DNA of 43,449 nt from Escherichia phage CY1_Cui-2023 (OQ357823.1), one strand, 5' to 3'. Counted from the stretch's first letter, positions 4,615 to 36,348 are shown. Numbers and translations: made by a program. Notes: a model not told the origin generated them from the sequence alone.

Positions 4615-4682
4615 TTTCTTATTCCTTAGAATGTGCATTTCGTTTCGATGGAGTAATCATACCTCAACTGTGAGTTTTGTCT

Positions 4683-4943
4683 TTAGCAATTAATGCTATT
4701 CAACCACCTGTTATATTTATCCTTCTCATTGATTGCCTTTTCCAGTGACTTGAATCTTAAAAGTAGTGGCATGCAGTCAACACTCATAGTTAAGGATTCG
4801 TCGCAGCTATTTGAACCAGTCAGCCAAAGTGAGAAGTACTGTTGTTCGAGGCCGTAGTTCCTGTCTTTATTGACTCTAACGCTAACAACTTTGAATTTCA
4901 AACCTGCCAACTTAACCTTATCTATAAATTCTGACTTATTCAT
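4683..4943 (-). CDS. hypothetical protein, 86 aa
   Basis: ORF with AAGGAG SD 7 nt upstream of ATG 4943. Confidence 0.5.
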   Translation of the reverse strand: MNKSEFIDKVKLAGLKFKVVSVRVNKDRNYGLEQQYFSLWLTGSNSCDESLTMSVDCMPLLLRFKSLEKAINEKDKYNRWLNSINC

Positions 4944-5854: not shown

Positions 5855-6020
5855 TTACACGTAACCGATGTAACTCGATGTATACAATCTCATCCGCGGG
5901 AAATGATATACTCGCTGTTACGCCAATTTACGCATTGGTTACATTAAAATATCTATATATATCAACCTTTTACTCTTATTATTATTATTATATATATTAC
6001 TGTGTATATCATGTAACTAC
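5855..6020. repeat. intergenic control region with GTAAC/GTTAC motif cluster plus (TA)n and (ATT)5 microsatellites
   Basis: GTTACACGTAACCGATGTAAC, GTTACGCC, GGTTAC at 5862-5945; (TA)4-5 at 5953-5961; TTATTATTATTATTA at 5977-5991; CATGTAAC at 6010-6017; lies between divergent genes. Confidence 0.6.
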
Positions 6021-6313
6021 TTCTATAGAGTGTTCCGGTTATAATTTTAATATCATGTGGATTTATACAGTATTGCGCGGCAGCTATACCAATGCACCCT
6101 CAGCGAGAAACGGCATACACGATATACACGATGTTTACATTGAGCTATGGCTGGCTTGAGATGCCAAAAAGCGTAACTAGTGCCAATGCCTACACGAAAT
6201 TACAAAGATTCACGCGTAAACTTAAATCAACGATTGGCAAAACCAATTGGACTGGTTACGGTGCTGAATATATAGTTACCTCATCGAAAGCAATCAACCA
6301 GAGAGATATATAA

Positions 6314-7550: not shown

Positions 7551-8201
7551 ATGCAAATTTCAGAATTATGCAAATCAATTTTAAAAGCGCTTCACACTGC
7601 TAAATCGCTATTTGCGAAGGCTGAAAAGTCTAAGCAGAACTCTCACTTAAAGAATAAATACGCTACCTTAGAAGACGTTTTGGCGGCTGTTGAGCCTGGT
7701 TTATATGAGTGTGGTTTGGTGATGTTCCAGAGTGTGATTGATGACGAACAAACAAATCGCATGAAGGTCGAGACAAAGCTGTTTCATGTTGAATCTGGAG
7801 AGTGGGTAAGCTTCTTAATGATAGTCCCAATCAGCAAGAATGATGCACAAGGTTACGGATCAGCTTTAACATACGCTCGTCGCTACGGTATCACAGCTGC
7901 CTTGGGTCTTAGCCAGGCTGATGATGACGGAAATCTTGCAGCCAAAGGCGTTAAGGATTTCAAGCGAGAGCTAGAGAAATGCAATACTCTTGATGAACTT
8001 CGTAACGTCTGGAAAGAGGCTAAGCAGTCACTTGATGCGGCTGGATGGAAGGTTTTTGAACCTCACATTATCGAGCGAAAAGCAGAGATTGAGGCTAGTG
8101 CAATGACGGGCTTCAACCCAGCGAAACCTAAGCAGGTTGCACAAAAAGCTGTTCAAGAAGAAAAGGCTGAAGTACAATCTCAAGAAATCGATACATTCTA
8201 A
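7551..8201 (+). CDS. erf: Erf-family single-strand annealing protein
   Basis: YATLEDVLAAVEP and GSALTYARRYGITAALGL match the P22 Erf signature (..YARKY..). Confidence 0.8.
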   Translation: MQISELCKSILKALHTAKSLFAKAEKSKQNSHLKNKYATLEDVLAAVEPGLYECGLVMFQSVIDDEQTNRMKVETKLFHVESGEWVSFLMIVPISKNDAQGYGSALTYARRYGITAALGLSQADDDGNLAAKGVKDFKRELEKCNTLDELRNVWKEAKQSLDAAGWKVFEPHIIERKAEIEASAMTGFNPAKPKQVAQKAVQEEKAEVQSQEIDTF

Positions 8202-8241: not shown

Positions 8242-8661
8242 ATGAGTCACGTAATTACTGGTGTTATCCGTCGCGCTCCGTTTACTAAAGAAGGTCAGAA
8301 TGCAAATGGCACCTGGAAAATGTACGCGGTTGATTTGAGTGAGCGCTACAAGGATAAGGATGGACAGGCGCATTACAGTAACTATCGAGCCGCCTTCTTC
8401 GCAAAAGAGTCAATGCTTGCATGGTATGACGAAGCGTTTCAGGAAGGTAAGGTTGTTAGCGTAAGTTGCGAAACTTTGGCTGTAGATGTTCGTGATAAAG
8501 ATGGTAAGACGTATGTAACCATTAATATGAACAATCCTCGACTTGAGTTTAGTCAGCGCGGTGAAGGTGGGCAGCAGCAGCAGAAACAACAACAGCAGCA
8601 GCAGCAACAACGACAGCCGCAGCCACAACAGCAGTTTGAAGCTGACAATATTCCTTTCTGA
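8242..8661 (+). CDS. ssb: single-stranded DNA-binding protein
   Basis: OB-fold-like N-terminus, Gln-rich linker and acidic C-terminal tail ending DNIPF, as in E. coli SSB (DDDIPF). Confidence 0.8.
   Translation: MSHVITGVIRRAPFTKEGQNANGTWKMYAVDLSERYKDKDGQAHYSNYRAAFFAKESMLAWYDEAFQEGKVVSVSCETLAVDVRDKDGKTYVTINMNNPRLEFSQRGEGGQQQQKQQQQQQQQRQPQPQQQFEADNIPF
8570..8634 (+). repeat. CAG/CAA trinucleotide repeat encoding the SSB poly-Q linker
   Basis: GGTGGGCAGCAGCAGCAGAAACAACAACAGCAGCAGCAGCAACAA... read directly. Confidence 0.8.
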
Positions 8662-10272: not shown

Positions 10273-11196
10273 TTAGTTTAGTAAGTCGTTGGCTTTGTAT
10301 ATTTTCTTGCGTATTCCTGTTTTAAATGACCTCCCGTCGTTAGGAATCACCACATCAACATTACGATCGTCAGCGACAGCGAGTATATCAGTATCACAAT
10401 CGCGGCAAGCAATCCTGAACCTTCTTGACCTGTCGCGGTGGATAACCATCTCCATATTGTAACAGGAGAAAGCAACAAACACCTCGCGACCCCCAGTAGC
10501 AAGGTGAACATGTACGCCATCAATGTAATTGTCGACAACATAAGTGTAACTATTATCCTGCCTAGAACCAATAACGTAAACAGAATCACGAGTGTAATCA
10601 CCAGCAAGGAACTTAACATTTGAATCCTCATCAATAAACATTACGTTACAAAACTCATCACCAAGCCCATCCTCATAAACCATAGAGCATGGGGTTGCGT
10701 GAATCATTGAACCATCCTTAGCGATACCAACATCAAAACCATCACTAAGGTAAATACCCTCGTATGTCGTGAGTGGACTTGATTCGACTCTCATGGTTCT
10801 CTCCATTACCTCCAGAACTTTCTCGTGGTCGACATGGGCACCCATTTTGTATCGCTGAGTTCTCGACGCTTGCTTGTTTGCTTTAACTATAACCTCAATT
10901 GGTGTTAAGTTCAGCCAGTCACCAAGCAAATTTACTGAATCGGCGAAGGACAATCCAGTGCACTTCATGACCCATCCTATACCTGTATCATTACCGCACT
11001 GACTGCAAATTGCAGCGCCATTACCTTTCTCGTTATTTAATTCATCAGTAAAACGAAACCTATCCTTACCAAAGCAGTAAGGGCATGGCCCGTGTTTCTT
11101 GCTAAGGTTTTCTTTTGTCCAGCCCATGTGAGATTCGTAAAACTTTGACCACATGCCCTTCATTTTTGACAAAACTTCATTCTTATCGTGATGCAT
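10273..11196 (-). CDS. DNA primase (zinc-ribbon plus TOPRIM-like)
   Basis: CPYC...CSQC zinc-binding motif near N-terminus followed by acidic TOPRIM-like region; position beside helicase. Confidence 0.6.
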   Translation of the reverse strand: MHHDKNEVLSKMKGMWSKFYESHMGWTKENLSKKHGPCPYCFGKDRFRFTDELNNEKGNGAAICSQCGNDTGIGWVMKCTGLSFADSVNLLGDWLNLTPIEVIVKANKQASRTQRYKMGAHVDHEKVLEVMERTMRVESSPLTTYEGIYLSDGFDVGIAKDGSMIHATPCSMVYEDGLGDEFCNVMFIDEDSNVKFLAGDYTRDSVYVIGSRQDNSYTYVVDNYIDGVHVHLATGGREVFVAFSCYNMEMVIHRDRSRRFRIACRDCDTDILAVADDRNVDVVIPNDGRSFKTGIRKKIYKANDLLN

Positions 11197-16636: not shown

Positions 16637-17185
16637 ATGAAACAACTATATTCAATGATAAAAAAATCAATTAACAATGACTTCAAAGGTAAGCCAGTTT
16701 ATATTTTTGATTATGACGGAACGCTTTCTGACGGGGCTCACAGACTTGATAAGCTCCCAAAAACTGACCCTCACCTTACCGAGTCGTGGATTGAGTTTAA
16801 CTCACTAAGCAGATTTGATTCTCCATTTAATGATACGATAAGCGTAATGAATTCGCTTTATGATAGCGGCGCATACATAATCATTTTAACAGGAAGGTCT
16901 GATCATGTTCTAGATGAGTCACTTGATTGGCTTACTAAAAATGGATGCAAATACAACGTAATGGTAATGCGATCAGCTTCGGACAACAGGAAGGATACGA
17001 TAATTAAAGAGGAATTCTTAAATTCAATTGGGATTGAAAGAATTACGGCGGCCTGGGATGATAGCCCGAATGTAATAAATCACTTTAGGTCTCTAGGGAT
17101 AACCACTTATCAGGTTTGTGATTATGGTTATAATGTTCACAGCGGCCTTAAATCTCATGGTGTAGAAAATCTGAATTCTAAATAA
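16637..17185 (+). CDS. HAD-superfamily phosphatase
   Basis: HAD motif I FDYDGTLSDG near N-terminus; downstream Thr/Lys/Asp motifs in HAD order. Confidence 0.6.
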   Translation: MKQLYSMIKKSINNDFKGKPVYIFDYDGTLSDGAHRLDKLPKTDPHLTESWIEFNSLSRFDSPFNDTISVMNSLYDSGAYIIILTGRSDHVLDESLDWLTKNGCKYNVMVMRSASDNRKDTIIKEEFLNSIGIERITAAWDDSPNVINHFRSLGITTYQVCDYGYNVHSGLKSHGVENLNSK

Positions 17186-17234: not shown

Positions 17235-17789
17235 ATGAAAAAGTTAATCATCCTTAATGGACCCCCAGGTGCTGGAAAAGATACAGTTGCAGATATCATT
17301 GTTAAACTTGGAATTTGCAAGGATAAGGTTTCTTTCAAATCACCTATGTTTAATGTGGCTAAGAGCATGCTATCAAGCGATGAGTTTGATGGATTTATTA
17401 AGAATTACGATGATCGAGAGTACAAAGAATCACCACATGAATTTCTTGGTGGAATGACTGTTCGTCAATTTATGATTTGGATTAGCGAATCAGTGATGAA
17501 GCCAGTTTTTGGTGATGAGGTTTTCGGTAAAAGGCTAGCTCAGTCTCTTGGCAATGGTTGCCACATCTGTTCAGATGGTGGATTTGCAAGTGAAATTGAG
17601 CCACTAATTGAAAGTGGTGTTGAGGTTACATTGGTTAGGCTTCATAGACCTGGTTACACTTTCGAAGGAGATAGTAGGTCATACATTAGCGGCCTCTGCG
17701 CAAGGGAAATTGATATTGATGTTATTGAAGGTGATATTAAAATAACTACAGAAAAAGTGATTGATGCAATAAATAGCACGAATCGCTAA
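17235..17789 (+). CDS. deoxynucleoside monophosphate kinase (T4 gp1-like P-loop kinase)
   Basis: N-terminus KKLIILNGPPGAGKDTVADII and internal VTLVRLHRPG parallel T4 dNMP kinase. Confidence 0.6.
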   Translation: MKKLIILNGPPGAGKDTVADIIVKLGICKDKVSFKSPMFNVAKSMLSSDEFDGFIKNYDDREYKESPHEFLGGMTVRQFMIWISESVMKPVFGDEVFGKRLAQSLGNGCHICSDGGFASEIEPLIESGVEVTLVRLHRPGYTFEGDSRSYISGLCAREIDIDVIEGDIKITTEKVIDAINSTNR

Positions 17790-25473: not shown

Positions 25474-25702
25474 GATCAAGTCACTAATGTTTAAGGTCGG
25501 AATTCTACATAAGCATAAATATAGATTATTCCGACGCATAAGTTGGTTTGAGGATTCGTATCAGGATGGGTGTAGGACAAAGCTAATCTGTACAGTTTGC
25601 GGGAAGATTGTTAACTCAAATGTTGACCTAATGGTTTGTAAAAGCACGCTGGATTTCGTTAGGTATGAAAAAGAGATTGCATCACTGACAGGAAAGTATT
25701 AG
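25445..25702 (+). CDS. hypothetical protein with CxxC zinc-ribbon-like motif (start uncertain: 25445 or 25466)
   Basis: ORF containing ...CRTKLICTVCGK...; overlaps the end of the previous gene. Confidence 0.4.
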   Translation: MRMGIAFMNKIKSLMFKVGILHKHKYRLFRRISWFEDSYQDGCRTKLICTVCGKIVNSNVDLMVCKSTLDFVRYEKEIASLTGKY

Positions 25703-25901
25703 TATTTATCTCGTAGGCATACGAGCTAGCCAAGCTAGAACGGCGCACGGAGCGCAACACAAAGTCCATTGCTAATTAAGTAGCGTACATGGCAAGTTGG
25801 CCAAAGAGGATAAGGCGCAAACCTCAATAACCGGTCGAGAAACTCGACGCTGGAGGCGTAACCAGCAATCTTTAAATAGCGCAATCGCTACTTAAATATT
25901 T

Positions 25902-25977
25902 GTTCTGCTGGCGTAACAGGATAACGCAAAGACCTCCTAAGTCTTAGTTGCTGGTTCGAGTCCAGCGCGGAACACCA
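25902..25977 (+). tRNA. tRNA-Arg (anticodon CCU)
   Basis: Hand-folded cloverleaf: acceptor GTTCTGC/GCGGAAC (one G-U), D-arm GCGT-AACAGGATA-ACGC, anticodon arm AAGAC-CTCCTAA-GTCTT (CCT at 25936-25938), T-arm GCTGG-TTCGAGT-CCAGC, discriminator A plus encoded CCA; 76 nt. Confidence 0.8.
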
Positions 25978-25993
25978 ATAAAGGAGATTCATT

Positions 25994-26176
25994 ATGTGGG
26001 ATGTTAAGCTTTCAATCCGCTTAATGGGTCGAAGCTGTAAGAATTGTCAGCAAGAATTTATCGCGTCGGTTACCGCTGAGTCCTCAGAGGAAGCGGTAGC
26101 GAAAGTAAAGGTAATGTCTGGTGCCGACCCGTATTACCACAAATTCCTAGTAACTTACGTTCGTGAGCGAAAGTAA
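25994..26176 (+). CDS. hypothetical small protein, 60 aa
   Basis: Strong SD AAAGGAGA before ATG 25994; contains CKNC. Confidence 0.5.
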   Translation: MWDVKLSIRLMGRSCKNCQQEFIASVTAESSEEAVAKVKVMSGADPYYHKFLVTYVRERK

Positions 26177-26228: not shown

Positions 26229-26252
26229 CGCCCTCTTCTTGAGGGCTTTTTT
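26229..26252 (+). terminator. intrinsic terminator separating the early/accessory block from the packaging genes
   Basis: GCCCTC-TTCTT-GAGGGC hairpin followed by TTTTTT. Confidence 0.7.
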
Positions 26253-26264
26253 ACGTCTGTAATA

Positions 26265-26273
26265 TGGTATAAT
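26265..26273 (+). promoter_or_regulatory. extended -10 promoter (TGGTATAAT) for the packaging/head operon
   Basis: TG-N-TATAAT at 26265-26273, 25 nt upstream of terS ATG; no good -35. Confidence 0.4.
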
Positions 26274-26298: not shown

Positions 26299-26823
26299 AT
26301 GAAAGACGAAAACTTCACCAGCCAGGCGCAAGAAAAGATTCGCTCTGGCAACTTCAAAGCCATGTACAACAAAAAGTATTCTGACATTACAACTCTGTCC
26401 AAAAACCGAATAATGACCCCAGAGCAGCTATTCGACCTGGCCGTGAAATACTTCTCATGGGCTGAGAGCCAGGCAATCAAGGCAATTGAGACAGCCAGCT
26501 TCCAGGGTGTCGTAACCGAGAATCTGGTGCACAAGCCACGAGTCTTCACACTAACAGGATTCTGCCTTTACTGCGGTGTTACCCATAGCGCAATAGAGAA
26601 ATGGAGGAAGTCGGCGGGTTATGACGAGGTAATTGCATTCATTGATTCCGTGATTCGCGAGCAGAAGTATCAGCTGGCAGCGTCTGGCATTGTTAACCCT
26701 GGCATGATTTCCAAAGAACTTGGCATCGATAAGCCGCAGGAGATTACTATAAGCAATAACTCTTCAGCTAACGACGTTGGCACGATGAAGGAAGCGCTGG
26801 AGTCTGTGATTAGTAAGCTGTAG
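26299..26823 (+). CDS. terS: terminase small subunit
   Basis: 174-aa ORF with strong SD AAAGGAGG, positioned immediately upstream of the HNH and large terminase genes. Confidence 0.6.
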   Translation: MKDENFTSQAQEKIRSGNFKAMYNKKYSDITTLSKNRIMTPEQLFDLAVKYFSWAESQAIKAIETASFQGVVTENLVHKPRVFTLTGFCLYCGVTHSAIEKWRKSAGYDEVIAFIDSVIREQKYQLAASGIVNPGMISKELGIDKPQEITISNNSSANDVGTMKEALESVISKL

Positions 26824-26891: not shown

Positions 26892-27398
26892 ATGAATTGG
26901 CATGATATTTTTGAATATAGAGACGGGCTTTTAATAAGAAAGGTAAAAGTAGCAAATGTATCAAAGGTTGGAGAGGTGGCCGGAAGAGTTGATAAATTTG
27001 GCTATGTGATACTAAAGTATAGACAAAAAGCATACAGGTGTCACAGGGTGGTGTGGGAGATGCACAATGGAGCAATCCCTAAAGGCATGTACATAGATCA
27101 CATAAACCAAAATAGAAGTGACAATAGAATAGAGAACTTAAGGTTAGTAAGCAATAAAGAGAACTCAAATAACAGATCACTATCATCAAGAAATAAAAGC
27201 GGAATAAACGGTGTAAGCTGGTGCAAAAGAGAGAATAGATGGCTTGTTCAGGCTAGAGAGTTTGGTAAAACAGTCTTCATATGCTACAAGGACACTATAG
27301 AGGAGGCTGCATTGGCAAGGTCGCAGTATGACAAATTGAACGGATATCATGAAAATCATGGCTCTGAAAATAAAGGCTACCTAAATACGAGAGCGTAA
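26892..27398 (+). CDS. HNH homing endonuclease with AP2-like DNA-binding domain
   Basis: HNH core (CHRVVWEMHNG...IDHINQNRSDNRIENLRLVSNKEN) followed by AP2-like segment (KSGINGVSW...W.A..F.....DTIEEA); inserted between terS and terL. Confidence 0.8.
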   Translation: MNWHDIFEYRDGLLIRKVKVANVSKVGEVAGRVDKFGYVILKYRQKAYRCHRVVWEMHNGAIPKGMYIDHINQNRSDNRIENLRLVSNKENSNNRSLSSRNKSGINGVSWCKRENRWLVQAREFGKTVFICYKDTIEEAALARSQYDKLNGYHENHGSENKGYLNTRA

Positions 27399-29021: not shown

Positions 29022-30296
29022 ATGGTAAAAGCAGATTCATACGCCACGCAGTTCCTGGGTGGAACTAGTGATGGTAGCGAGATTTACGGGCAATTCGGCA
29101 ACACTTACCTTGCGCCACCATTCGCCGATTCACTTTACGTGTCTAACTCACTGGTTCGCCGCATCGTCGATACCATCCCAGAGACAGCAATCGCCGCAGG
29201 TTTCCATATTGATGGCATTGATAACGAGGGTGAATTCTGGTCAAGGTGGGATTACCTAAAGGTCAACGAGTCAATCTCTGACGCATGGTCATGGGCGAGG
29301 TTGTTCGGCGGCTCAGCTATTGTGGCTATCGTTAAGGATAATCGTGCGCTAACTAGTCCGGTACGTGAAGGTGCTGAACTTGAATCGCTTCGAGTATACG
29401 ATCGCAGTCAGGTGAGGGTGCAAGCGAAGGAGGAGAATCCTCGCAATGTTCGATTTGGAAAACCACTAACGTACCGCATAACACCTGAAGGTAGCTCCAC
29501 GTTTTATGATGTGCATTACTCTCGAGTTCACATTATGGATGGAGAGAAGATTCCTAGCTCATTGCGTCTCGGCAATGATGGGTGGGGTGCTAGCGTTCTG
29601 GTTCCTGACCTACTGGAGGCAATCAAGGATTATCAGACGTGCGAGAAACTGGCAACCCAGTTATTGCGCCGTAAGCAACAGGCGGTATGGAAGGCGAAGG
29701 GGCTTGCTGAATTGTGTGACGACGCAGAAGGTTTTGGTGCGGCAAGGTTAAGGCTGGCTCAGGTTGATGATAATTCCGGCGTTGGTCGCGCGATTGGTAT
29801 TGATGCAGAGTCTGAAGAGTACAGTGTTCTGAACTCGGATATTGGTGGGATTGATGGATTCCTGGATAAGAAATTCGACAGGATTGTTGCTCTGAGTGGT
29901 ATTCATGAAATCATCCTCAAAGGCCGTAACGTTGGTGGTTTGTCATCAAGCCAAAACACAGCATTGGAGACATTCCATAAACTAATCGACCGCAAGAGAA
30001 ATGAAGAATTACTCCCTGTTCTTGGTTTTTTAATCCCGTTCATCACAACCGAGCAGGAATGGTCAGTTGAGTTTAATCCGCTAGCTCAGGAATCGAAGAA
30101 GGACCGCGCTGAAATACTGAAGAATAACGTTGATTCAATCGCCACTCTCATCACTAACGGAGTAATGGACGCAGATGAAGCACGAGATACCTTGCGCGCA
30201 TTAGCCCCTGAGGTTAAGATTGGTGAAGGTTCGATTGTAACTGAGCAGCCCGCACAAGAAGAATCACCAAAAGAGGAGATTGTAATTGAAAGCTAA
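29022..30296 (+). CDS. portal protein
   Basis: About 425-aa ORF after terL with SD GGAG 7 nt upstream of ATG 29022 (track start 28995 lacks an SD); acidic C-terminus. Confidence 0.75.
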   Translation: MVKADSYATQFLGGTSDGSEIYGQFGNTYLAPPFADSLYVSNSLVRRIVDTIPETAIAAGFHIDGIDNEGEFWSRWDYLKVNESISDAWSWARLFGGSAIVAIVKDNRALTSPVREGAELESLRVYDRSQVRVQAKEENPRNVRFGKPLTYRITPEGSSTFYDVHYSRVHIMDGEKIPSSLRLGNDGWGASVLVPDLLEAIKDYQTCEKLATQLLRRKQQAVWKAKGLAELCDDAEGFGAARLRLAQVDDNSGVGRAIGIDAESEEYSVLNSDIGGIDGFLDKKFDRIVALSGIHEIILKGRNVGGLSSSQNTALETFHKLIDRKRNEELLPVLGFLIPFITTEQEWSVEFNPLAQESKKDRAEILKNNVDSIATLITNGVMDADEARDTLRALAPEVKIGEGSIVTEQPAQEESPKEEIVIES

Positions 30297-31398
30297 AATT
30301 CGTTATGACAGTGCAAAAGTTAAAGCGCGATTTGACGAAAACGGATTCCTGGTAGATACACCTGTGGTTGCTCGCGTAGGCGTGCAATCATACTACCTGC
30401 CAGATGGCTCGGAACGACGCGAATTTAGGCCAGCTTCAGAGGTCTTTAAAGCTGATTCTCTTGCAAGTTATCAGGGCAAGCCGATTACCTTAGGCCACGT
30501 GTTTGTTAACGTTGATAATGCCAAGCAGGTAGTTGTAGGCTCAGTGTCTGGCTCAGCAATGCGTCAGGATTCGAACGTGGTAGTTCCACTAACCGTTTAC
30601 GACAAGGAATCAATCGAGAAAGCTAAATCTGGCATTGCCGCCGAGTTATCTGTAGGCTACTCGACTGTTGATGTTGAGTCTCCAGGTTGGGGGAGTAATG
30701 AGACTGGTGAATACAAGTTGGATGGTGATTACGAGTCCCAAGATGAAATTCCACCTGACTGGGTTCGTTTTGATGCACTGCAAACTAACATTATTGTTAA
30801 TCACGTTGCAATGGTATACAAAGGTCGCGCAGGTGTTGCAAAATTGAATATGGACGCAGAACAGGAAAACCCGTATACTGACAGCGTTGATTCTATTAAA
30901 GAGGATGTTAAAGAAATGGTTAAGATTAAACTGGATGGCGCCCAGGAGTTCGAAATCGCTCCAGAAGTTGCCGCACACATTGAAGCTATTAAAAAAGATG
31001 CAGTTGACGCTAAAACCAAAGCCGACTGCATTGAAGCTGAGCGTGATGCGCTGAAGGCTAAAGTAGACGCGATGCCTGCTGAAATCGAGAAAGCCGTTAA
31101 AGCTGCTAAAGCCGACGCTGAAGCACTTGCCGCTCTGGTTACTGTAGCCGCAGAGGTTGGAATTAAGACTGATGGTCTGGATGCTAAAGGCATCAAAGTA
31201 GCTTACGTTAAAGAAGTTTCCGGCCTTGATGTTGCTGATAAATCCGACGCATACATCGACGCAGCGTTCGACATTGCCAAGGATTCTGATAAAATGGCTG
31301 AAGTTCGTAAAGCTACCGTAGCTTCCGACAAATCTGACAAAGCTGACGAACCTAAGAAATTAGACCCACGTGCTCGTCTGGCTAAAATTAAAAAGTAA
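30286..31398 (+). CDS. head maturation protease / scaffold-like protein (TTG start)
   Basis: TTG 30286 with strong SD AAGAGGAG; C-terminal half is Ala/Lys/Glu/Asp-rich coiled-coil-like (scaffold-like); sits between portal and capsid genes. Confidence 0.55.
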   Translation: MKAKIRYDSAKVKARFDENGFLVDTPVVARVGVQSYYLPDGSERREFRPASEVFKADSLASYQGKPITLGHVFVNVDNAKQVVVGSVSGSAMRQDSNVVVPLTVYDKESIEKAKSGIAAELSVGYSTVDVESPGWGSNETGEYKLDGDYESQDEIPPDWVRFDALQTNIIVNHVAMVYKGRAGVAKLNMDAEQENPYTDSVDSIKEDVKEMVKIKLDGAQEFEIAPEVAAHIEAIKKDAVDAKTKADCIEAERDALKAKVDAMPAEIEKAVKAAKADAEALAALVTVAAEVGIKTDGLDAKGIKVAYVKEVSGLDVADKSDAYIDAAFDIAKDSDKMAEVRKATVASDKSDKADEPKKLDPRARLAKIKK

Positions 31399-31409
31399 GG
31401 AGATAGATA

Positions 31410-31904
31410 ATGGCAATTCGTTCTGTAGCTCTGGCAGGTATGGTAGCTGATACTTCCCTGTATAATATCGATGGTGCTTGTGTAGTTGGTGGTACTGCTG
31501 CCACTAGAATCCCGGTTGGAACATTCGTAGGTGTTAGCACCGCTCAGCCAGTAGATGGTCACAAGGTTGTTGCCCTTCCGGCTATATCAGGAACTGCAAT
31601 TAAACCTTACGGCGTTGTTGTTAAATCTCATTATGAGACTCCAGATGGTCAGGCTCGCGGCCTTGAGGCAGTTAACGTAATGACTTCTGGTCGTATTTGG
31701 GTTCGCACTACTCTTGCAGCTGCTCCGGCATTTGGTGACAAGGTTTTCGTAAATGAAAGTGGCGTTGTTGCCGCTAAAGTGGGACGTTCTACCTGGGGAA
31801 CTGGTTTCACATTTGCTGGTGGCTATGTATCAGCTAGTGAAAGCGTTGATGGCGCACTGGTTGAAGTTCAGCTGATTCAATCCGCAGACTCAACTGTGGC
31901 TTAA
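31410..31904 (+). CDS. putative head decoration / head-associated protein, 164 aa
   Basis: SD AAGGAG; Gly/Val/Ala-rich beta-type sequence between scaffold and major capsid genes. Confidence 0.45.
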   Translation: MAIRSVALAGMVADTSLYNIDGACVVGGTAATRIPVGTFVGVSTAQPVDGHKVVALPAISGTAIKPYGVVVKSHYETPDGQARGLEAVNVMTSGRIWVRTTLAAAPAFGDKVFVNESGVVAAKVGRSTWGTGFTFAGGYVSASESVDGALVEVQLIQSADSTVA

Positions 31905-32046: not shown

Positions 32047-32991
32047 ATGGCCATTAAATTTGATGCAGAACAAGCAAAAATCACCGCTCACCTAGAGCAA
32101 ATGGGCGTAGATAAGGCTGATGCTGCTGGTATCTGGACCGTTAAGCAGTTAACCGCATCACTGAATCGCGCTTACGAAAAAGAATACGCAGACAACTCAG
32201 TTGTCAACATCTTCCCAGTAACCAACGAAATCCCTGGTCACGCGAAATACTTCGAATACCCTGAGTTCGATGGTGTTGGTATTGCTCAGATCATCGCTGA
32301 TTACTCTGACGACCTGCCGCTGGTTGATGCTTTCATGACCGAGAAGCAGGGTAAAGTATTCCGCTTCGGTAATGCGTTTATGATCTCAGTTGATGAGATT
32401 AAAGTTGGCGCTGCTACTGGTCAGTCACTGTCCGCTCGCAAACAGGCTTTGGCTTTTGAAGCTCACGACAACCTGCTTGATAAACTGGTATGGTCTGGCT
32501 CTGCACCTCACGGCATCGTAGGCGTATTTAACCAGCCGAACATCAACAACGTTGTTGCAACTCCAAACTGGAGCAATCCAATTAACGCGGTTAACGACGT
32601 TACCGCAATGATTGATGCTGTAGAAACCAGCACACAGGGCTTCCACCATGTAACTGACATTCTGCTGCCAGCTTCCGCTCGCCGTGTAATGCAGCGCCTT
32701 GTTGATAATACAACCCTGAGCTATGGCGAGTTGTTTACTCGTAACAACCCAGGTGTAACCCTGCGCTTTATGCAGTTCCTGGATAACTACGATGGTGCTG
32801 GCGGTAAAGCTGCGCTGGCGTTTGAAAAGGATCCGCTCAACATGAGCATCGAGATTCCGGAAGTTACAAACGTTTTACCTGGTCAGCCTCGTGATCTTCA
32901 CTTCCGCTTCCCTGTAACCTCTAAGGCGACAGGTTTGATTTTATATCGCCCTCTTACAGTGGCAGCTATCAAAGGAATTACCTTTGCCTAA
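32047..32991 (+). CDS. major capsid protein
   Basis: 314-aa ORF with SD AAGGAA, positioned after portal/scaffold/decoration genes; abundant-protein-like codon usage. Confidence 0.7.
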   Translation: MAIKFDAEQAKITAHLEQMGVDKADAAGIWTVKQLTASLNRAYEKEYADNSVVNIFPVTNEIPGHAKYFEYPEFDGVGIAQIIADYSDDLPLVDAFMTEKQGKVFRFGNAFMISVDEIKVGAATGQSLSARKQALAFEAHDNLLDKLVWSGSAPHGIVGVFNQPNINNVVATPNWSNPINAVNDVTAMIDAVETSTQGFHHVTDILLPASARRVMQRLVDNTTLSYGELFTRNNPGVTLRFMQFLDNYDGAGGKAALAFEKDPLNMSIEIPEVTNVLPGQPRDLHFRFPVTSKATGLILYRPLTVAAIKGITFA

Positions 32992-35688: not shown

Positions 35689-36348
35689 ATGGCCCATCTC
35701 AGCAATGGCACCCAGGTCTTCGTAGAGGGCACTAGGGGTAATACTATCGACGTAACAGCAATTACCAATGCTGTTGCTCCTGTTTTAACTTTGTCCGACG
35801 CCACAGGTATTGCGCGCGGGGATTACCTGCTGTTCACCAGCTCAGCTTCAACACTTCTGGCTGATAAGCAAGTTCGTGTCACCGCGGTATCTGGTTCGGA
35901 CGTAACTGTTGAAGGTATTGATACCTCCAACAACACTAAGTTTCCAGCCGGTTTAACTGGTGAAGTAGTTAAGATTCTTAGCTGGTTTGAAGTTCCTTGT
36001 GTTCAGGATGTATCCACTGACGGCGGCGAACAGCAGTTCGTTAACTTCCAGTGTTTATCTGATGACCGCGAGCAACAGATTCCAACCTATAAGTCTGCGG
36101 TAACTAACACCTACACGTTCGCGCACGAATACACCAACCCGGTATATCCGATTCTGCGTAACTATGATGAGTCTGGTCAGGTTGTTGCTATCCGTCTGTT
36201 CGTGCCTCGCGCTAGTGAGATGCGACTTCAGTCTGGCACTATCTCTTTCAACGACACCCCGAGCATTGGTGTTAACGAAATCGAAACGGTATCCATCGCG
36301 GTATCCATCCGTGGTAGGCTGAGTTCTGTGGCTTCTGAGCTAGTATAA
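35689..36348 (+). CDS. major tail protein
   Basis: 219-aa ORF with SD AAAGGAAA, followed by a strong terminator and then the chaperone and tape-measure genes. Confidence 0.65.
   Translation: MAHLSNGTQVFVEGTRGNTIDVTAITNAVAPVLTLSDATGIARGDYLLFTSSASTLLADKQVRVTAVSGSDVTVEGIDTSNNTKFPAGLTGEVVKILSWFEVPCVQDVSTDGGEQQFVNFQCLSDDREQQIPTYKSAVTNTYTFAHEYTNPVYPILRNYDESGQVVAIRLFVPRASEMRLQSGTISFNDTPSIGVNEIETVSIAVSIRGRLSSVASELV

Follow-up and report, generated by a model that had tools for sequence, protein, structure and literature searches.

Does a lone tRNA gene in a phage genome supply a codon that the host reads poorly, does it shield the phage from a host defence that attacks tRNAs, or does it do nothing at all? 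The question is raised by a tRNA-Arg(CCU) gene of Escherichia phage CY1_Cui-2023 (OQ357823.1), which we examined within a stretch of 43,449 nucleotides, hereafter called the window. A sequence-only reading had described a canonical 76-nt cloverleaf with anticodon CCT, standing alone between small ORFs, and had taken such a gene as a sign of either codon-usage compensation for late genes or escape from a tRNA-targeting defence. The gene, its relatives, its genomic surroundings and the codon usage of the phages that carry it are considered in turn below; the coordinates of all features are collected in Table 1.

The window encodes a single, structurally intact tRNA-Arg(CCU)

ARAGORN identified one tRNA in the 43,449 nt, a 76-nt tRNA-Arg with anticodon cct. 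The same gene was recovered with Rfam RF00005, the single Rfam family above threshold within the window, which matched positions 25902-25974 over the full model (1-71) with 59.3 bits (E 1.8e-10), i.e., 30 bits over the gathering score of 29. Both predictors thus confirmed the cloverleaf and its anticodon. The stems comprise 7/4/5/5 bp with one G-U pair, located in the acceptor stem, the variable loop has 4 nt, the T-loop sequence is UUCGAGU and the gene encodes its 3' CCA. All the core and tertiary nucleotides (U8, A14, G18-G19, A21, U33, T-loop UUCGA and CCA) are in place: GUUCUGCUGGCGUAACAGGAUAACGC...GGUUCGAGUCC...ACCA.

Arginylation by E. coli ArgRS depends on A20, C35, U36 or G36, and A73 or G73, and U36-A37-A38 is the usual context for t6A37. 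The phage tRNA carries the complete set of ArgRS identity elements and, judging from these nucleotides, should be recognized by an ArgRS of the E. coli type. Its structure is maintained by selection: in 9 distinct variants of tRNA-Arg(CCU), 189/189 stem cells form standard pairs (100%), and compensatory double changes are found in 3 pairs (8 cells), namely 11-24 (C-G/U-A), 27-43 (G-C/A-U) and 49-65 (A-U/G-C). The observed covariation score was reached by none of 500 shuffles, and slid-register controls scored far lower. A20, C35, U36 and the anticodon are invariant over the 9 variants, and position 73 is A or G.

As for the surroundings, the gene that follows does start 16 nt past the tRNA behind a strong Shine-Dalgarno sequence, as had been stated. 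The tRNA does not simply stand alone, however: it is embedded in a conserved unit made of a putative promoter, a leader, a small ORF and a terminator. The ORF upstream of the tRNA ends at 25702.

Table 1. Features of the tRNA-Arg(CCU) unit, the start of the late region and related loci (window coordinates)
Feature	Position	Strand	Evidence and remarks
PNKP-type phosphatase-domain protein	16637-17185		PF25109
P-loop kinase-like protein	17235-17789		Separate, adjacent to the phosphatase-domain protein
Putative sigma-70 promoter	25677-25705	+	-35 TTGCAT 25677-25682, 17-nt spacer, -10 TAGTAT 25700-25705; conservation
Structured non-coding leader, ~190 nt	25712-25901	+	Fold z-score -2.44
Twin hairpins	25832-25870	+	hp1 25834-25848; hp2 25849-25866, loop ending CGUAA
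26-nt near-perfect palindrome TTTAAATAGCG-CAAT-CGCTACTTAAA	25871-25896	+	Between hp2 and tRNA
tRNA-Arg(CCU) gene	25902-25977	+	ARAGORN and RF00005; anticodon 25936-25938; encoded CCA 25975-25977; A20, C35, U36, A73
Shine-Dalgarno AAGGAG and 60-aa ORF	25981-26176	+	AAGGAG 25981-25986; ORF 25994-26176; phrog_2919; homologue of T1 gp56/Rtp17
Intrinsic terminator-like hairpin GCCCTC-TTCTT-GAGGGC then TTTTTT	26230-26252	+	Closes the unit before the packaging/late genes
Extended -10 element TGGTATAAT	26265-26273	+	Directly after the terminator, 26 nt before terS
Terminase small subunit gene (terS)	26299-26823	+	PF16677 GP3_package; start of the AGG-rich late region
Hairpin-plus-T-run sites	26230, 28985, 31929, 33011, 36353, 37532, 40929, 42026, 43374	+	Between late-operon genes

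The tRNA belongs to a phage lineage

Escherichia phages Rao1 and TR3 (Drexlerviridae, Braunvirinae) share 99.7% identity with the window region. The 76-nt tRNA gene is 100% identical in TR1, TR2, TR3 and Rao1, 93-97% identical in about 30 more records (Rogue1, JK06, phiEB49, the AHP24 group, Sf12, Sd1 and others) and 82% identical in the Opt-79 group. Since the same gene recurs at 82-100% identity in 40 phage records, counting those that cover at least 80% of it, its presence is not due to chance; it is conserved between flanks that diverge.

The phage tRNA-Arg(CCU) is already known: many of the 40 records annotate it (e.g., TR1-3, Rogue1 and AHP24), and the 2012 publication on Rogue1 describes it with the words "recognizing the rare codon AGG" (PMC3496638); in the AHP24 paper, each genome is credited with "1 arginyl-tRNA" (PMC4070988). 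Both papers mention the tRNA only, without analysis of codon co-variation, and our literature searches found no functional study of it. The annotation is absent from the records of Rao1, ES, AN_ECEAS, JK06, C119, phiJLA23, phiKP26 and e4/1c, and in the IMM-001 record a hypothetical protein is drawn over the tRNA.

BLAST comparison of the tRNA with 5,426 complete E. coli genomes returned no match, and a 35-nt pattern (anticodon arm and T arm) had 0 exact matches in 185,579 representative genomes of bacteria and archaea. With both searches empty, a host origin (captured argW or a prophage copy) was ruled out; because no match was found in E. coli or in the representative genomes, the gene is assigned to a phage tRNA lineage rather than to a recent capture from the host. 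The E. coli argW tRNA shares with the phage tRNA the CCU anticodon, the 7-nt loop CUCCUAA, A20 and A73; however, the two show no BLAST-detectable overall similarity, and none of the acceptor, D, anticodon and T stems is the same. An integration remnant (attP) was also discarded: the annotation of the near-identical TR3 genome contains no integrase, and the Drexlerviridae, the family of the window, are generally virulent.

AGG is scarce in the host and abundant in the late genes of the phage

Codon usage was compared between 42 annotated K-12 genes (14,748 codons) and phage ORFs of at least 100 aa (11,041 codons). AGG, which had been named as the rarest Arg codon of E. coli-type hosts, proved to be the rarest of all sense codons in the 42-gene K-12 sample (10 occurrences, 0.68 per 1000, 1.3% of Arg codons), and argW, the only host tRNA-Arg(CCU) gene, is single-copy in 5426/5426 E. 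coli genomes. In the phage, AGG is the commonest Arg codon (154/554, 28%, 13.9 per 1000). Relative to the K-12 sample it is also the most over-used codon, at 19.6x, followed by AGA (6.4x) and ATA (4.8x). As AGG tops this list, the single tRNA of the phage matches the largest mismatch between host supply and phage demand.

The excess is concentrated in the late genes, i.e., those for packaging, head, tail and lysis: AGG represents 107/307 of their Arg codons (35%), compared to 37/234 (16%) in the early genes (Fisher p=5e-7). The AGG-richest genes encode the tape-measure protein (25/42 Arg codons), the tail-tip J-like protein (20/52) and the large terminase (11/33). At the other end, AGG is nearly absent from recE, erf and ssb (0/25), the helicase gene (1/38) and the gene of a DUF3987 protein (0/27). 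The late enrichment recurs in Rogue1 and Opt-79, with a late/early ratio of 2-3.5 across the three carriers of the CCU tRNA. AGG does not appear to be preferred for highest expression despite the tRNA, because the most abundant virion proteins avoid it (3/40 Arg codons). The AGG-avoiding proteins are the major capsid and major tail proteins, and the protease/scaffold and adjacent protein (32047-32991, 35689-36348 and 30286-31904). Between terS and terL, an HNH endonuclease gene (26892-27398) uses AGA for 12/16 Arg codons, unlike its neighbours, and this bias fits a mobile gene of foreign origin.

Arg codon usage follows the anticodon among close relatives

Phage Rtp gave no BLAST match to the CCU tRNA. 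An unannotated tRNA-Arg(UCU) is present in the syntenic slot of its genome (NC_007603.1, 4893-4969), in the gap between rtp15 and rtp16, and a tRNA-Arg(UCU) occupies the same site in Msk, 2725-N35 and several IMG/VR contigs; T1 has no tRNA. The UCU form of the Rtp-type Braunvirinae and the CCU form are ~70% identical: their acceptor stems differ in 1/7 pairs (GUUCUGC vs GCUCUGC) and the variable loop measures 5 nt in the UCU form and 4 nt in the CCU form, whereas the genomic slot, the T-stem core, A20 and the encoded CCA are the same. Because 6/7 acceptor pairs are alike and the T-stem core and A20 are shared, the CCU and UCU tRNAs are probably homologous. More distant counterparts are the tRNA-Arg(UCU) of T4-type phage and that of the host, argU.

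Codon usage differs in parallel with the tRNA. AGG accounts for 25-28% and AGA for 12-18% of Arg codons in the carriers of the CCU form (window, TR3, Rogue1 and Opt-79), and the UCU-form carriers Rtp and Msk prefer AGA over AGG (23-24% and 15-17%); in T1, AGG represents about 10% and AGA about 14%. AGA is also favoured in 2725-N35 and other genomes with the UCU form. The G+C content is 44% in all the compared genomes. The shift was then read at conserved Arg positions of reciprocal-best orthologues. Positions with AGG in the CCU carrier and AGA in the UCU carrier outnumbered the reverse in every comparison (31/11, 42/11, 24/11, 25/8, 29/5 and 26/8; p 0.04 to 2e-5), whereas pairs of genomes with the same anticodon were symmetric (15/12, 15/13, 9/9 and 11/11). 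With T1 as the reference, CCU carriers had AGG where T1 has another Arg codon more often than the reverse (50/14, 42/5 and 49/9), and UCU carriers likewise had AGA (41/19 and 39/17). These comparisons cover about 6 complete genomes with few independent CCU/UCU events, and the genes were called by a simple longest-ORF heuristic; the whole genomes came from the annotated phage collection, as scans of IMG/VR yielded only 12 loci with TerL and 11 with the tRNA pattern.

The shift is specific to AGR codons. The 12 other NNA/NNG synonymous pairs are symmetric (pooled 379/384, 404/412, 306/324 and 315/330; Fisher versus AGR p=0.0024 to 2.5e-5), and a general A-to-G drift at third positions is therefore ruled out as the source of the AGG enrichment. 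The AGR shift is again concentrated in late genes, in which AGG reaches 31-35% of Arg codons in CCU carriers and AGA 26-28% in UCU carriers, compared to 11% and 15% in T1. The compensation of codon usage for late genes that the sequence-only reading had put forward is thus supported by the 19.6x excess, the late bias and the anticodon-linked choice between AGG and AGA.

The proteins of the window are on average 77% identical to those of Rtp and 66% to those of Rogue1; AGR usage nonetheless follows the phage's own tRNA, which is 96% identical to that of Rogue1 and lies between unrelated flanks. Because the proteins are nearer to Rtp, the tRNA is nearer to Rogue1 and the flanks are unrelated, these sequences suggest that, in the TR/Rao1/IMM-001 lineage, recombination put a CCU cassette in the place of a UCU cassette.

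The tRNA lies in a conserved unit with a putative promoter and a leader

Upstream of the tRNA lies a putative sigma-70 promoter, the -10 element of which overlaps the stop codon of the preceding ORF. Its position is conserved in 13 lineages (TTGACC-18-TAGTAT in T1, TTGACG-17-TAGTAT in Rogue1 and TTGCAT-17-TAATAT in Rtp, for example); the match was made by regular expression in 10 lineages, and by eye in the window, IMM-001, L010 and L011. In a generic promoter scan of the window this promoter stayed below threshold since its -35 element matches at just 3/6 positions, and it was recognized through conservation across lineages.

The promoter is followed by a structured non-coding leader, with a 5' hairpin at 25710-25725 and small ones at 25726-25738, 25743-25755 and further on. 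Its first ~85 nt are ~83% conserved with the UCU-type Braunvirinae, and the stems of the leader hairpins vary by lineage yet stay paired. A permissive Rfam search with the 199-nt spacer gave chance-level matches only, leaving the leader with no Rfam match, and MAFFT with RNAalifold produced no consensus structure for the whole leader because the lineages differ by large indels.

The last two hairpins of the leader, hp1 and hp2, are adjacent. As the MAFFT alignment mis-registered their 5' strand, a covariance model (R2) was used, which found one plausible match per genome or locus, always in the syntenic position and including tRNA-less T1; the exceptions were an additional weak off-site match in lineage L009 (E 2.2) and a miss in L011. 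In the resulting alignment 98% of cells are paired and 6/10 pairs show double changes, figures that are inflated because the alignment was fitted to the model. Minimum-free-energy folds of the individual sequences yielded hp2 in most of them, and six different hp2 stems, all complementary, were observed.

None of the Drexlerviridae lineages examined lacks the promoter and leader, whether or not it carries a tRNA (T1, 7586-7741; Rtp, about 4615-4892). T1 and its close relatives have the Shine-Dalgarno sequence of a small ORF directly after hp2, whereas in the tRNA carriers the tRNA, in some phages together with a second tRNA-like gene, is inserted at this hp2/small-ORF junction. The junction after the leader appears to be a favoured site of tRNA insertion. 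Genes seen beside tRNA-Arg include a 93-nt tRNA-like gene with an aberrant anticodon loop in Opt-79 (47150-47242), a tRNA-Trp(CCA) in Sd1 (5966-6039) and a tRNA-Val(AAC) call in phiEB49 (10585-10661). Among the lineages compared, the 26-nt palindrome between hp2 and the tRNA is found only in the window and IMM-001; it is absent from Rtp, Rogue1 and T1, in which hp2 is directly followed by a ACTCATTCAAA-like sequence. This palindrome might act as an operator or form a hairpin, or might be a scar that recombination left at the cassette swap.

Downstream of the tRNA, the 60-aa ORF has no Pfam match, and T1 has an annotated terminator (8322-8344) at the place equivalent to that of the terminator-like hairpin that closes the unit. 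The TGGTATAAT element probably acts as the promoter of the packaging genes. Between the genes of the late operon there are at least nine hairpin-plus-T-run sites, strong and co-oriented, and the T1 record annotates a similar series of terminators.

Probable supply of an AGG decoder and competing explanations

We consider it likely that the gene encodes a functional tRNA-Arg(CCU) that supplements the scarce argW tRNA in the translation of AGG-rich phage genes, and that the codon usage of the phage has co-evolved with it. The intact gene, its conservation and the codon statistics make codon compensation well supported in silico: AGG is in large excess over host usage, is enriched in late genes and is used according to the presence and identity of the tRNA among relatives. 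A supply function predicts such an anticodon-specific co-variation of codons, whereas a decoy or a replacement for a cut tRNA does not require it. This bears on the proposal that the tRNA acts mainly in anti-defence, either by replacing a host tRNA-Arg cut by an anticodon nuclease or by resisting the nuclease, as T5 tRNA-Lys does against PARIS. Phage tRNAs are capable of such a role (PMC11464382, PMC10264068), PrrC, when overexpressed, cleaves the AGR-reading tRNA-Arg(UCU) (PMC2610378), and a C34 tRNA without a modified wobble U might escape a PrrC-like enzyme. Moreover, the anticodon stem is unlike that of argW at 4/5 pairs, the genome has genes for a PNKP-type phosphatase and for a kinase-like protein, enzyme types used in tRNA repair, and the Rtp record annotates a Stp-like PrrC activator. 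However, the signature proposed for nuclease-evading phage tRNAs consists of anticodon-loop differences from the host isoacceptor (PMC10264068), and it is absent because the CUCCUAA loop is identical in the phage tRNA and argW; position 39 is G in both. Nor is the isoacceptor a known target: literature searches, made in a searchable literature that is incomplete, returned no phage-defence nuclease directed against tRNA-Arg(CCU), and colicin D cleaves Arg tRNAs but is no phage-defence system. Rescue of AGG decoding alone would also not save the phage from a nuclease aimed mainly at tRNA-Lys. The escape from defence that had been suggested for this tRNA therefore found no support, and we regard anti-defence as an improbable main function; it and codon compensation are not mutually exclusive. 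As a separate observation, the phosphatase and kinase-like pair resembles a split T4 Pnk, the end-healing enzyme of tRNA repair; no RNA ligase was noticed in the window, and nothing ties the pair to tRNA-Arg(CCU).

A further proposal is that the tRNA acts mainly as a regulator, a temporal gate like bldA in Streptomyces: efficient translation of the AGG-rich late genes, and with it the timing of tail, packaging and lysis proteins, would depend on the build-up of the tRNA. This is a refinement of codon compensation rather than an exclusive rival, and it is favoured by AGG being 2-3.5 times commoner among late than among early Arg codons in 3/3 CCU carriers, by the early replication genes being nearly devoid of AGG and by the position of the tRNA directly upstream of the late region behind its own conserved predicted promoter. 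However, the most abundant late proteins avoid AGG, and T1 shows the same late bias in weaker form; as T1 has no tRNA, the bias is not made by the tRNA alone. Such gating is unlikely in our view. The opposite extreme, a non-functional passenger (a pseudogene in decay, a scar left by recombination or the remains of an attachment site), might be invoked because several records leave the tRNA unannotated and that of IMM-001 places a hypothetical protein across it, but it already looks refuted and we accord it almost no probability: the score lies far above the Rfam threshold, all stems pair in 9/9 variants with compensatory changes, the identity elements are intact and the tRNA is conserved amid diverging flanks.

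Proposed mode of action and significance

For a tRNA that supplies AGG decoding, the following sequence of steps appears the most likely. Host RNA polymerase would transcribe the tRNA from the conserved sigma-70-type promoter, RNase P would remove the ~190-nt structured leader, and 3' processing would part the tRNA from the small-ORF mRNA ending at the terminator. Once charged by host ArgRS, the phage tRNA would back the single-copy argW as an added decoder and relieve AGG-limited elongation. The beneficiaries would mainly be the tail, tape-measure, terminase, portal and lysis genes, which are expressed late. Codon usage has shifted towards AGG in the CCU lineages and towards AGA in the UCU lineages, with fewer of both in tRNA-less T1. 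Moderate AGR use does not strictly depend on the tRNA, because T1 reaches ~10% AGG and ~14% AGA without it.

A bolder reading of the unit joins the leader to the tRNA. The tRNA would be the first gene of the late transcript, and the promoter and twin-hairpin leader would act in cis on RNA polymerase as a small undescribed processive-antiterminator or processing RNA of the examined Drexlerviridae; the AGG decoder would be co-produced with the AGG-rich late operon and gate it, and the CCU/UCU swap would be a phage retuning its use of the genetic code. We view this scheme as doubtful.

The gene itself adds nothing new, given its annotation in near-identical genomes and its publication for Rogue1. 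What the comparison brings is that one slot among close relatives holds a CCU tRNA, a UCU tRNA or none, and that the choice between AGG and AGA follows the anticodon while other A/G-ending pairs are balanced. The CCU/UCU swap is an unusually clean natural experiment, and the slot comparison provides direct comparative evidence for codon compensation by phage tRNAs, a role that competes with the anti-defence view in a continuing debate. At a practical level, several database records, including that of the reference phage Rtp, miss the tRNA, and in standard E. coli the AGG-rich genes of these phages will be poorly expressed unless rare-codon tRNAs are supplied. The leader RNA beside the tRNA is undescribed, and this conserved structured element may merit its own study.

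Comparison with known systems

For the leader, the HK022 put RNA offers a loose parallel: it too has two adjacent stem-loops transcribed from a conserved promoter, upstream of intrinsic terminators and a long operon. Around the tRNA, the unit has its putative promoter and the terminator-like hairpin at 26230, and at least nine co-oriented terminator-like sites lie in the late operon; candidate internal promoters are present too. However, put measures ~70 nt and has two long stems and a triplex (PMC9378689), whereas the leader element measures about 35-47 nt, its two stems have 6-7 and 4-5 bp, and the two RNAs have no sequence similarity. Membership of the put RNA family is ruled out by size and architecture, and that the leader might work by analogy as a put-like antiterminator, or as a processing signal, is only a guess.

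The genomic arrangement is that of the Rogue1/JK06/AHP24-type T1-like phages (Rogunavirinae), in which a CCU tRNA, 94-97% identical to that of the window, also lies directly upstream of the small ORF and terS. The window differs from these in two respects: it belongs to the Braunvirinae, of which the other members examined (Rtp, Msk and 2725-N35) carry the UCU form, and an extra 35-nt stretch, including the 26-nt palindrome, parts its tRNA from the twin hairpins.

The tRNA also compares with the codon-compensating phage tRNAs, the original analysis of which is reportedly that of Bailly-Bechet, Vergassola and Rocha in 2007. Summaries of the hypothesis are available (PMC10264068, PMC12482277). 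As with codon-compensating phage tRNAs generally, the tRNA-Arg(CCU) of the window matches the codon in largest excess, this codon is enriched in late genes and the carrier is a virulent phage. The tRNA is, however, single and not part of a cluster, and its anticodon is swapped between CCU and UCU among close relatives.
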